Below are positions 4,272 to 5,324 of a DNA stretch of 17,197 nucleotides, piece after piece. A program made the translations under genes and the position numbers. The first letter of the stretch is position 1; each line of letters opens with the position of its first letter. The notes under the pieces were generated by a model. That model saw nothing but the letters and a program-made list of their open reading frames with translations, searched no databases and had not been told where the DNA came from. The stretch is from a virus, in UHGV virus genome UHGV-0182888. The stretch is one strand, 5' to 3'.

Positions 4272-5324
4272 TTATGTTTTGCTCAGTTTTTCCACCTCTT
4301 CGGTGGTCTGAATAAATCTGTCAGCTTCCAGTTCTACGCCGATCGCCCGACGGCCAAGTTCTATTGCTGCTTTCACAGTTGAACCAGAGCCCATAAAGAA
4401 ATCGGCAACGATATCCCCCGGCCTGCTGCTGGCGCTAATGATCTGTTTCAGCATATCGGCAGGGTTTTCGCATGGATGTTTGCCCGGATAAAACTGAACA
4501 GGCTTATGCGTCCATACGTCGGTATACGGAACAAGAGCGGAAACAGAGAAGCAGCGCCGGAGGGTTTTGTATTCCTCCAGCAATTCTGAATACTTGCGGT
4601 TTAATGACTGATAGGTAGCCACTAGCTGGTGGTGAGGATGTTCAAGCTTCTGCTGAATGTGCTTATCGATAGCGATCCGCGTGAACAGTTCCTGCAATTT
4701 TCTATAGTCCACTTCATTTGGTAGTTGCCATTGGCTTGCACCAAACCAGTGTGACGCCATGTTTTTCTTTCCGGTTGCCTCAGCTATTTCTTTCGAGCTG
4801 ACACCCAGTGATTCACGGGCATTACGGAAGTAGTCAATCAGTGGCGTCATAATGTGCTGCTTTAGTTCTGTGCTTTTCCTTTCGTAAACGTCCTCTTTAC
4901 CTGTGTACGGCCCAAGATAGTGCTCAGCAAACAAAATCCGTTCCGTAGATGGAAAGTACGCACGCAGGCTTTCTTTGTTGCAGCCATTCCAGCGGCCAGA
5001 TGGTTTTGCCCAAATTATATGATTCAAAACGTTGAACCGGGCACGCATCATAATCTCTATGTCTGAGGCCAGCCGGTGACCGCAAAACAAGTAGATGCTG
5101 CCAGCAGGTTTAAGAACGCGAGCATACTCAGCCAGACAGCTATCAAGCCAGCGTAAGTAGTCCTCGTCCCCCTTCCATTGGTTGTCCCAGCCGTTGGGCT
5201 TCACTTTGAAGTACGGCGGATCCGTAACTATCAGATCAATAGAGTTATCCGGGAGGGTGGCGACGTAATGCAGGCTATCAGCGTTGATTAACTCAACACT
5301 GTTTATTTTTACAGTATTCTTCAT
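4272..5324 (-). CDS. DNA N6-adenine methyltransferase, beta-class (motif IV DPPY before motif I FxGxG), orphan
   Basis: 350 aa. LIVTDPPYF near the N-terminus and DIVADFFMGSGSTVKAA near the C-terminus give the beta-class amino-methyltransferase motif order. No adjacent restriction endonuclease gene. Confidence 0.85.
   Translation of the reverse strand: MKNTVKINSVELINADSLHYVATLPDNSIDLIVTDPPYFKVKPNGWDNQWKGDEDYLRWLDSCLAEYARVLKPAGSIYLFCGHRLASDIEIMMRARFNVLNHIIWAKPSGRWNGCNKESLRAYFPSTERILFAEHYLGPYTGKEDVYERKSTELKQHIMTPLIDYFRNARESLGVSSKEIAEATGKKNMASHWFGASQWQLPNEVDYRKLQELFTRIAIDKHIQQKLEHPHHQLVATYQSLNRKYSELLEEYKTLRRCFSVSALVPYTDVWTHKPVQFYPGKHPCENPADMLKQIISASSRPGDIVADFFMGSGSTVKAAIELGRRAIGVELEADRFIQTTEEVEKLSKT

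Follow-up and report, generated by a model that had tools for sequence, protein, structure and literature searches.

What is a solitary adenine methyltransferase doing immediately ahead of the lysis genes of a temperate phage, and how is it kept in check? The locus that raises this question lies in UHGV virus genome UHGV-0182888, of which we analysed a stretch of 17,197 nucleotides (nt), here called the window. The gene occupies positions 4272..5324 on the minus strand. A first-pass annotation, made from the sequence without database searches, had called it an orphan beta-class N6-adenine methyltransferase. The call holds, given the PF01555 match, the similarity to M.EcoGII and the lack of a neighbouring nuclease; we add the strand and the family, neither of which had been given. 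In our judgement it is quite probable that the gene encodes a non-specific methylase of the M.EcoGII family, belongs to the Q-dependent late operon and serves to methylate phage DNA before packaging, against restriction. Beyond this ordinary gene, the points of note are a substitution in the active site (K287N) and a conserved, unannotated element beside the start codon.

By sequence, the gene product is an ordinary member of the known and very common M.EcoGII family. It is 75% identical to M.EcoGII (260/348, 2 gaps) over the full length, including the central recognition region, using the M.EcoGII sequence in Supplementary Table S1 of the SUPREM paper (PMC11551740). Identity is 83% to Anc291 and 69% to SUPREM (Anc284), synthetic ancestors of the M.EcoGII clade; these two sequences were machine-read from the supplement with a few reading errors, so the true identities are slightly higher. 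M.EcoGII and M.EcoGI, from prophages of E. coli O104:H4 C227-11 (PMC5778455), are like the window protein in length (349-350 amino acids, aa), beta-class motif order, prophage location, lack of a partner nuclease and sequence (75% identity over the whole protein). The window protein differs from them in about a quarter of its residues, in its Citrobacter-type host lineage and in the motif HPCEKP, which is kept by both synthetic ancestors and reads HPCENP here.

The non-specific activity, toxicity and silence in lysogens that we ascribe to the window enzyme are taken from the literature on these relatives. For M.EcoGII, any adenine serves as a substrate, whatever its context, in DNA (double- or single-stranded) and in RNA; expression of the enzyme slows growth, it is silent in its own lysogen, and it is part of 'a very large family' of prophage methylases (PMC5778455). 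Anc291 and SUPREM likewise methylate DNA and RNA without site preference (PMC11551740).

An open reading frame (ORF) runs from ATG to stop exactly over the gene, confirming that it is real. The predicted protein matches the Pfam profile PF01555 (N6_N4_Mtase) over aa 29-336 with 147.9 bits (E=5.4e-43), far over the cut-off of 26.7, so that the motif assignment of the first-pass annotation is borne out by a profile search. Its motif order also stands: motif IV (DPPY) is followed by the recognition region, motif X and motif I (FxGxG, here FMGSG), which is the order of the beta class. An AlphaFold model built on 38 homologues, with a mean pLDDT (predicted local distance difference test score) of 69, has the Rossmann-like methyltransferase fold by Foldseek, with best matches to M.BceJIV, CcrM, M.RsrI and M.MboIIA (E about 1e-13 to 1e-11). 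These enzymes share the fold, the catalytic and S-adenosylmethionine (AdoMet) motifs and HPxxKP; unlike the family described here, they are site-specific, have other recognition modules and share only about 20% identity with the window protein. Model helices at 146-173, 177-184, 189-194, 204-223 and 231-255 in the recognition region agree with the four-helix bundle with a helix-turn-helix described for M.EcoGII, where it lies between the two halves of the catalytic domain (PMC11551740).

Family matches occur in 2720 of the 5426 complete E. coli genomes (as many as 8 copies in one genome), in more than 3000 proteins of a 5.8-billion-protein set and on at least 595 IMG/VR contigs. NCBI nr already lists an identical protein, labelled a Caudoviricetes methyltransferase and derived from gut metagenomes, and three gut-metagenome contigs in ENA carry the gene, differing from the window by 0-2 bases over 8-13 kb. 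Citrobacter genomes encode near-identical methylases together with an identical copy of the neighbouring 220-aa ORF; thus, the host of this lambdoid phage is probably Citrobacter. The methylase itself adds little, in that it confirms M.EcoGII-type enzymes as a standard late-operon module of enteric temperate phages. A literature search for 'EcoGII-like' prophage studies returned nothing useful, and a comparative paper on pR' contains no mention of methylases.

The genomic context places the gene in the late operon, as had been proposed. The window covers the early-right and late regions of a lambdoid temperate phage. Encoded in order on the minus strand are a cII-like protein, a replication protein, a Dam-like fusion, RusA, an antirepressor, a DUF968 protein, Q, the 220-aa ORF and the methylase, then two holins, a GH19 endolysin, a spanin and the small terminase; the cI-like repressor gene is on the plus strand. 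Q, a strong terminator, cargo, methylase, holins and endolysin are on one strand, with a gap of 146 nt between the methylase and the first holin gene (PF16931). A sigma-70 consensus scan found no promoter-like site on the minus strand from Q to the endolysin.

The same order of Q, terminator, cargo, methylase and holin occurs in the prophage of Nissle 1917, in phiNP and in mEp460. We surveyed 80 relatives in IMG/VR, 77 of which had enough sequence to place Q: Q is upstream on the same strand in 68 of the 77, and a holin or endolysin gene follows the methylase, often within 5 nt. Terminator-like hairpins with a T-run lie 12-18 nt before the conserved element in 72 of 83 unique contexts, against a rate of 7.6% in random segments, and these comprise 52 different hairpin sequences. 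More distant are N15 gp52, phiKO2 Gp52 and VHML ORF17 (50-58% identity), from linear-plasmid prophages and a Vibrio myovirus. They too have the upstream element and lie between late promoter plus terminator and lysis genes, in N15 and phiKO2 by the depositors' own annotation, which puts promoter and terminator immediately ahead of the gene; they differ from the window in having no cargo between terminator and element. From this gene order and these terminators, expression of the methylase by Q-mediated readthrough, together with the lysis genes, is well supported by anatomy.

Homology to the Nissle 1917 prophage runs through Q and ends just past the terminator at 6198-6219, resumes 138 nt before the methylase and stops 98 nt after it. 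The methylase and its flanks thus form a module, and the stretch that follows the terminator serves as a cargo slot. Its content differs between phages: Nissle has a serine protease and small ORFs there, phiNP and mEp460 have small ORFs, and the window lineage has the 220-aa ORF.

We propose the following course of events, in which family, motif order, fold, gene order, terminators and absence of a partner nuclease come from the present analysis, and we infer the timing and the benefit against restriction. The enzyme would be a dimeric, AdoMet-dependent member of the beta class and would make N6-methyladenine from adenine whatever the surrounding sequence. Late-promoter transcription in the lysogen would halt at the terminator just past Q, and transcription from the cargo gene would meet the second hairpin, so that the toxic enzyme is kept off. 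The conserved element at the 5' edge of the gene, which may well be an antisense small RNA, would likely be part of this control. Upon induction, Q would render RNA polymerase resistant to termination and the methylase would be made alongside the lysis proteins. New phage DNA could then be heavily adenine-methylated before packaging, and the methylated particles may resist many adenine-sensitive restriction systems in the next host. The anti-restriction role suggested at first pass is in line with the late placement and with the literature on M.EcoGII.

As stated in the first-pass annotation, there is no cognate endonuclease at the locus: the methylase gene is flanked by genes for a helical membrane protein and for a holin, and the adjacent cognate endonuclease of a type II restriction-modification system is absent. 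It could be argued that the methylase supplies the modification for a restriction-modification or other defence pair and that its nuclease has escaped notice, either in the 220-aa ORF or in the DUF968/HNH-like gene before Q. In relatives from Citrobacter, Salmonella and Kluyvera, a member of the 220-aa ORF family does always immediately precede the methylase gene, and the protein encoded at 7023-8018 has a weak HNH-like match and a match to PHROG 96, 'HNH endonuclease'. However, the model of the 220-aa protein is all-helical and membrane-anchored, without a nuclease-like fold, and there is no PADLOC match; the methylase occurs without this ORF in Nissle, phiNP, mEp460, N15, phiKO2 and VHML; and DUF968 is an early-region gene in another operon, separated from the methylase by Q and the terminator. 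Moreover, a non-specific methylase implies no cognate site-specific partner. We find an overlooked nuclease hardly credible.

Very unlikely, too, is an orphan methylase that recognises a specific sequence and serves in epigenetics or regulation, as Dam or CcrM does. The recognition region is the part of the protein most diverged from M.EcoGII, yet it aligns with that of M.EcoGII without gaps apart from one residue. M.EcoGII, Anc291 and SUPREM, all non-specific, bracket the protein in sequence, and expression in the late lytic phase only would leave little room for heritable regulation. The VHML homologue has reportedly been discussed as a regulator. Because the M.EcoGII family methylates adenine in any context, methylation calling is not expected to return a recognition motif.

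Several observations weigh against a non-specific, Q-dependent and active methylase at this locus. Measurements of specificity are limited to M.EcoGII and the reconstructed ancestors, and the structural model of the window protein is only moderate in quality (mean pLDDT 69). In the window, no U-run accompanies the hairpin downstream of the cargo gene. There is no Shine-Dalgarno sequence before the methylase ATG (5325-5345, ...GTTACGCTTACTGATCTATG); a strong one does precede the holin gene, which lies 146 nt downstream (GAGGGGGCTAAATG, 4126-4140), and the two together suggest that translation of the methylase is deliberately poor. Finally, not all residues invariant in relatives are retained, as Asn287 in HPCENP stands where they keep Lys. 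The segment aligns with HPTQKP of CcrM, position 287 corresponding to Lys193, which hydrogen-bonds N7 of the flipped target adenine; CcrM Thr191 stacks on the same base (PMC6787082).

Lys is found at position 287 in all 119 close homologues with the motif, in 13/13 members of the same 90% cluster, some of which are only 3 residues different, and in 90/90 diverse representatives with a recognisable motif, down to 33% identity. Relatives with Lys include proteins with only 3-5 other differences from the window protein. Lys also occurs at this position in M.MboIIA, M1.HpyAVI, M.RsrI and M.BceJIV, and Phe in TTHA0409. The two N4-cytosine enzymes among the PDB matches carry Phe at the position equivalent to Lys193; Phe is the residue of the N4-cytosine enzyme M.PvuII. 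We found no mutational data for the HPxxKP lysine in the literature, and a search with the HPTQKP motif gave nothing useful.

K287N is a single-base change (to AAC) common to all three metagenome contigs. As it affects an otherwise invariant active-site lysine, the activity of the window allele is uncertain and the allele may be weakened. A weakened or dead enzyme, encoded by a gene that is decaying or that has been attenuated because full activity is costly, is possible, although we lean away from it; such an allele would be compatible with membership of the M.EcoGII family. In its favour, Asn287 is unique among all relatives examined, is aligned with a residue that contacts adenine N7 in CcrM, and belongs to an enzyme type whose expression, in M.EcoGII, is harmful to cells (PMC5778455). 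On the other hand, the allele persists, being the same in three metagenome assemblies of an otherwise intact phage; the remainder of the ORF is intact, and Asn could still donate a hydrogen bond. Whichever applies, K287N is a natural test of a residue tied by structures to adenine recognition. M.EcoGII is widely used in chromatin footprinting and RNA tools, and the outcome could matter to those users.

Table 1. Features at and around the methylase gene, in window positions.
Feature	Position	Strand	Basis
M.EcoGII-family beta-class adenine methyltransferase gene	4272..5324	-	ATG-to-stop ORF, 350 aa; PF01555
Motif IV DPPY, aa 35-38, catalytic	5211..5222	-	translation; invariant in 38-sequence alignment A1
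Motif I FMGSG (FxGxG), aa 310-314, AdoMet binding	4383..4397	-	translation; invariant in A1
Motif X HPCENP, aa 283-288	4461..4478	-	AAC codon 4464-4466 = Asn287, Lys in relatives
Central helical target-recognition region, about aa 140-260	4545..4907	-	insertion relative to Pfam profile; model helices
Conserved structured element, 137 nt, abutting methylase start codon	5322..5458	either strand	conservation and covariation
Element helices P0, P1 and P2	P0 5448-5452/5377-5381; P1 5436-5447/5417-5429; P2 5407-5415/5387-5395		comparative structure
Element helices P3 and P4	P3 5370-5374/5359-5363; P4 5343-5347/5327-5331		comparative structure
Predicted antisense small RNA of about 100 nt, with 5' hairpin, three-way junction and U-rich tail	5358..5457	+	folding, inferred
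TGA-TAGGCT, extended -10-like block for predicted antisense RNA	5344..5352	+	homologue variation
Hairpin after cargo gene, at terminator position of relatives	5468..5485	-	without U-run in window
AT-rich (35% GC) cargo gene, 220 aa, not a methylase partner	5500..6162	-	no family above cut-off
Strong intrinsic terminator, tR' analogue, 93 nt past Q stop	6198..6219	-	8-bp GC-rich stem, then TTTTTT
Q antiterminator gene	6312..7022	-	PF06323, E=2e-36
Lysis cassette: two holin genes and GH19 endolysin	2857..4125	-	PF16931, PF05449, PF00182
Second methyltransferase, Dam-like domain and 240-aa C-terminal half	9098..10417	-	PF05869, TIGR01712

The element that abuts the start codon is strongly conserved and is apparently an undescribed small structured RNA. 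In 92 enterobacterial loci it is 83-100% identical to the window at the nucleotide level, compared with values down to 73% for the coding sequence, and it is conserved above the coding sequence in every locus examined. It is recognisable in N15, phiKO2 and VHML, that is, from enterobacterial to Vibrio phages. Lysogens with the element include E. coli Nissle 1917, whose prophage copy is 98.6% identical, and O104:H4 and O157 strains. The pattern of its three invariant blocks has 81 matches in the IMG/VR loci examined; an M.EcoGII-family ORF follows 79 of these, and starts 23 nt past the pattern in 75 of the 79. The other two matches, in tail genes of high-GC phages, were set aside as chance, having no methylase downstream and no covariance-model match. 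Our covariance model (R1) gives a single match in each locus, invariably next to the methylase, and no further match elsewhere in the window. About 26 more distant Vibrio-type methylase loci have no R1 match, the element being either absent or diverged there.

Covariation supports the structure. Both partners change in 27 of the 34 pairs when 50 distinct sequences are aligned with R1 as guide, and double-change cells number 185, compared with 78.7+-6.9 in shuffles (0/500 reach 185) and 32-66 with slid partners. This alignment was fitted to the model and favours structure, but the slid controls, which have the same bias, score far lower. The signal is spread over three to four helices; P4 is paired in only 56%. 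RNAalifold on plain MAFFT alignments recovers the invariant P0 helix only. The hairpins are misaligned in such alignments, which made a hand-set structure and a covariance model necessary. A search of 3600-7100 with Rfam cmscan (E<=1) returned nothing in the element, only two sub-threshold matches to leader terminators, on the terminator at 6192-6258, and a scan of the window for tRNA and tmRNA found none. We do not regard a small ORF inside it (5352-5477, 41 aa from TTG) as a gene, as it is frameshifted in phiNP and ends after about 10 codons in Klebsiella-type versions. In one IMG/VR contig (IMGVR_UViG_2698536677_000006), element copies occur at 315-420 and 3300-3406, 3 kb apart, and one of them is followed by only a 57-aa methylase remnant.

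If the element is an RNA gene, which strand carries it? Our tentative reading, to which we give slightly less than an even chance, is that it encodes an undescribed family of antisense RNAs of about 100 nt, with a TGnTAnnnT promoter, that would block or destroy leaky late transcripts in lysogens. Of 49 unique sequences, 41 have their more stable fold on the strand opposite the methylase (mean -53.3 vs -46.5 kcal/mol, Wilcoxon p=1.5e-7). Against dinucleotide shuffles the opposite strand has z=-3.9, compared with -3.0 for the methylase strand, and is the lower of the two in 19/25. In P2 and P4, the methylase strand has A.C mismatches in 88 cases and G.U in 13; as A.C on that strand becomes G.U on the other, these mismatches favour the opposite strand.

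Read on the opposite strand, the block with the highest conservation (AGCCUAnCA) becomes TGnTAGGCT. Its hexamer has the form T-A-n-n-n-T in 44 unique homologues and varies only in the middle three positions (TAGGCT, TAGACT, TAAGCT, TACGCT, TAAACT, TAGTAT, TATTAT and TATGCT), with TGn ahead of it in 36; this is behaviour like that of an extended -10 promoter element. The minimum-free-energy (MFE) structure of the plus strand from about 5358 to 5457 alone reproduces all of the comparative helices, and this RNA would start about 7 nt past the block. The comparative architecture is the MFE structure in 46 of 48 unique homologues on the opposite strand and in 14 of 49 on the methylase strand. Against an antisense RNA are G.U pairs of P1 that lie on the methylase strand in enterobacterial versions, the absence of a good -35 and the shortness of the U-run. 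The sigma-70 consensus scan found no promoter near the element on either strand, extended -10 sites being outside its scope.

The element could instead be a sense-strand 5' leader of the methylase mRNA that controls translation, which we consider rather unlikely. It abuts the ATG on the transcribed late strand, there is no Shine-Dalgarno sequence, and hairpin P4 ends 2 nt before the ATG. The P1 G.U pairs of enterobacterial versions are on the sense strand, the sense fold has z=-3.9 in the window, and there is a precedent in the isrK-orf45 leader of Gifsy-1, located after a late terminator (PMC4825925). Set against these are the strand comparisons of stability and architecture given above, the A.C mismatches of P2 and P4 on the sense strand, the variation of the most conserved block as a -10 hexamer on the opposite strand, and P4 being paired in little over half of cases. 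Nor is there a sign of IsrK-like pairing: a short late-promoter RNA of the lambda 6S / StxS / IsrK kind is expected from 6198-6311, between the Q stop and the terminator, and its complementarity to the element is no better than that of shuffles. The probability left by the antisense and leader readings goes to something else, or to no RNA function.

An antisense RNA would have company among phages. Lambda OOP and aQ, P22 sar and Gifsy-1 IsrK/orf45 are short RNAs, encoded opposite a phage operon or at its head, which hold back a gene that would harm the lysogen, and the IsrK locus likewise lies directly after Q and a terminator. In orf45, downstream of isrK, nucleotides are conserved and amino acids are not (PMC4825925). 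The element differs from all of these in showing no sequence or Rfam similarity to them, and the predicted RNA differs in being a three-way junction clear of the start codon. Likeness to type I toxin-antitoxin systems is in logic only, as the 'toxin' is a 350-aa enzyme and the predicted RNA does not overlap its start codon.

Were the antisense reading true, the RNA would accompany M.EcoGII-type genes across hundreds of phages that range from Enterobacteriaceae to Vibrionaceae, about half of E. coli genomes would contain it, and it would stop leaky late transcripts before the toxic methylase and the lysis genes. A real element would explain how so many lysogens can silently carry a lethal non-specific methylase, and would be a widespread phage regulatory RNA missing from current RNA-family libraries.

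The gene in the cargo slot looks like a fast-evolving cargo gene. The 220-aa ORF has no Pfam, PHROG or PADLOC family and two NCBIfam matches far below cut-off. Only 22 homologues were found (Citrobacter, Kluyvera and Salmonella; 36-65% identity), and it fills the slot between Q and methylase in all five contexts read. Its model (pLDDT 78) consists of one long N-terminal helix with a membrane anchor and a four-helix bundle, and its best match in the PDB is no better than E=0.045. As a hidden nuclease or defence gene we rejected it, there being no family in the four libraries and the model being all-alpha. The point after the 6198-6219 terminator at which homology ends is also a mosaic joint with the Nissle prophage.

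The second methyltransferase named in the first-pass annotation, at 9098..10417, is real, with matches to PF05869 (Dam; E=7.5e-43) and TIGR01712 (205 bits, cut-off 97). The C-terminal 240 aa (9098-9820) of this 439-aa fusion have no Pfam family. Related prophages have, at this place, a 292-aa Dam alone, a 444-aa version, or Dam followed by a 644-aa C5-cytosine methylase. The layered protection against restriction that had been read from the two genes fits in so far as they are paired; it is not, however, peculiar to this prophage. The pairing of a Dam-like gene in the early-right operon with a late methylase recurs in related prophages, and layered protection would thus be a standing design of the lineage.

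Within the lysis cassette, the holin genes (PF16931 at 3739-4125 and PF05449 at 3471-3752, both minus) overlap by 14 nt and precede the GH19 endolysin gene (2857-3471, minus). In relatives with the same methylase the holins are lambda-S or others and the endolysins differ as well; the lysis cassette is thus swapped independently of the methylase. Just past the methylase stop, at 4231-4270 on the minus strand, a hairpin can be seen by eye (GATCATCAC...GTGGTGATC followed by ACCATTTTCA); it was not returned by the consensus scan, and N15 and phiKO2 have an annotated terminator at this place. In a Citrobacter braakii relative, a HicA/HicB toxin-antitoxin pair (L007:6953-7591) has been inserted on the opposite strand between methylase and holin, which marks a second cargo slot in the module.

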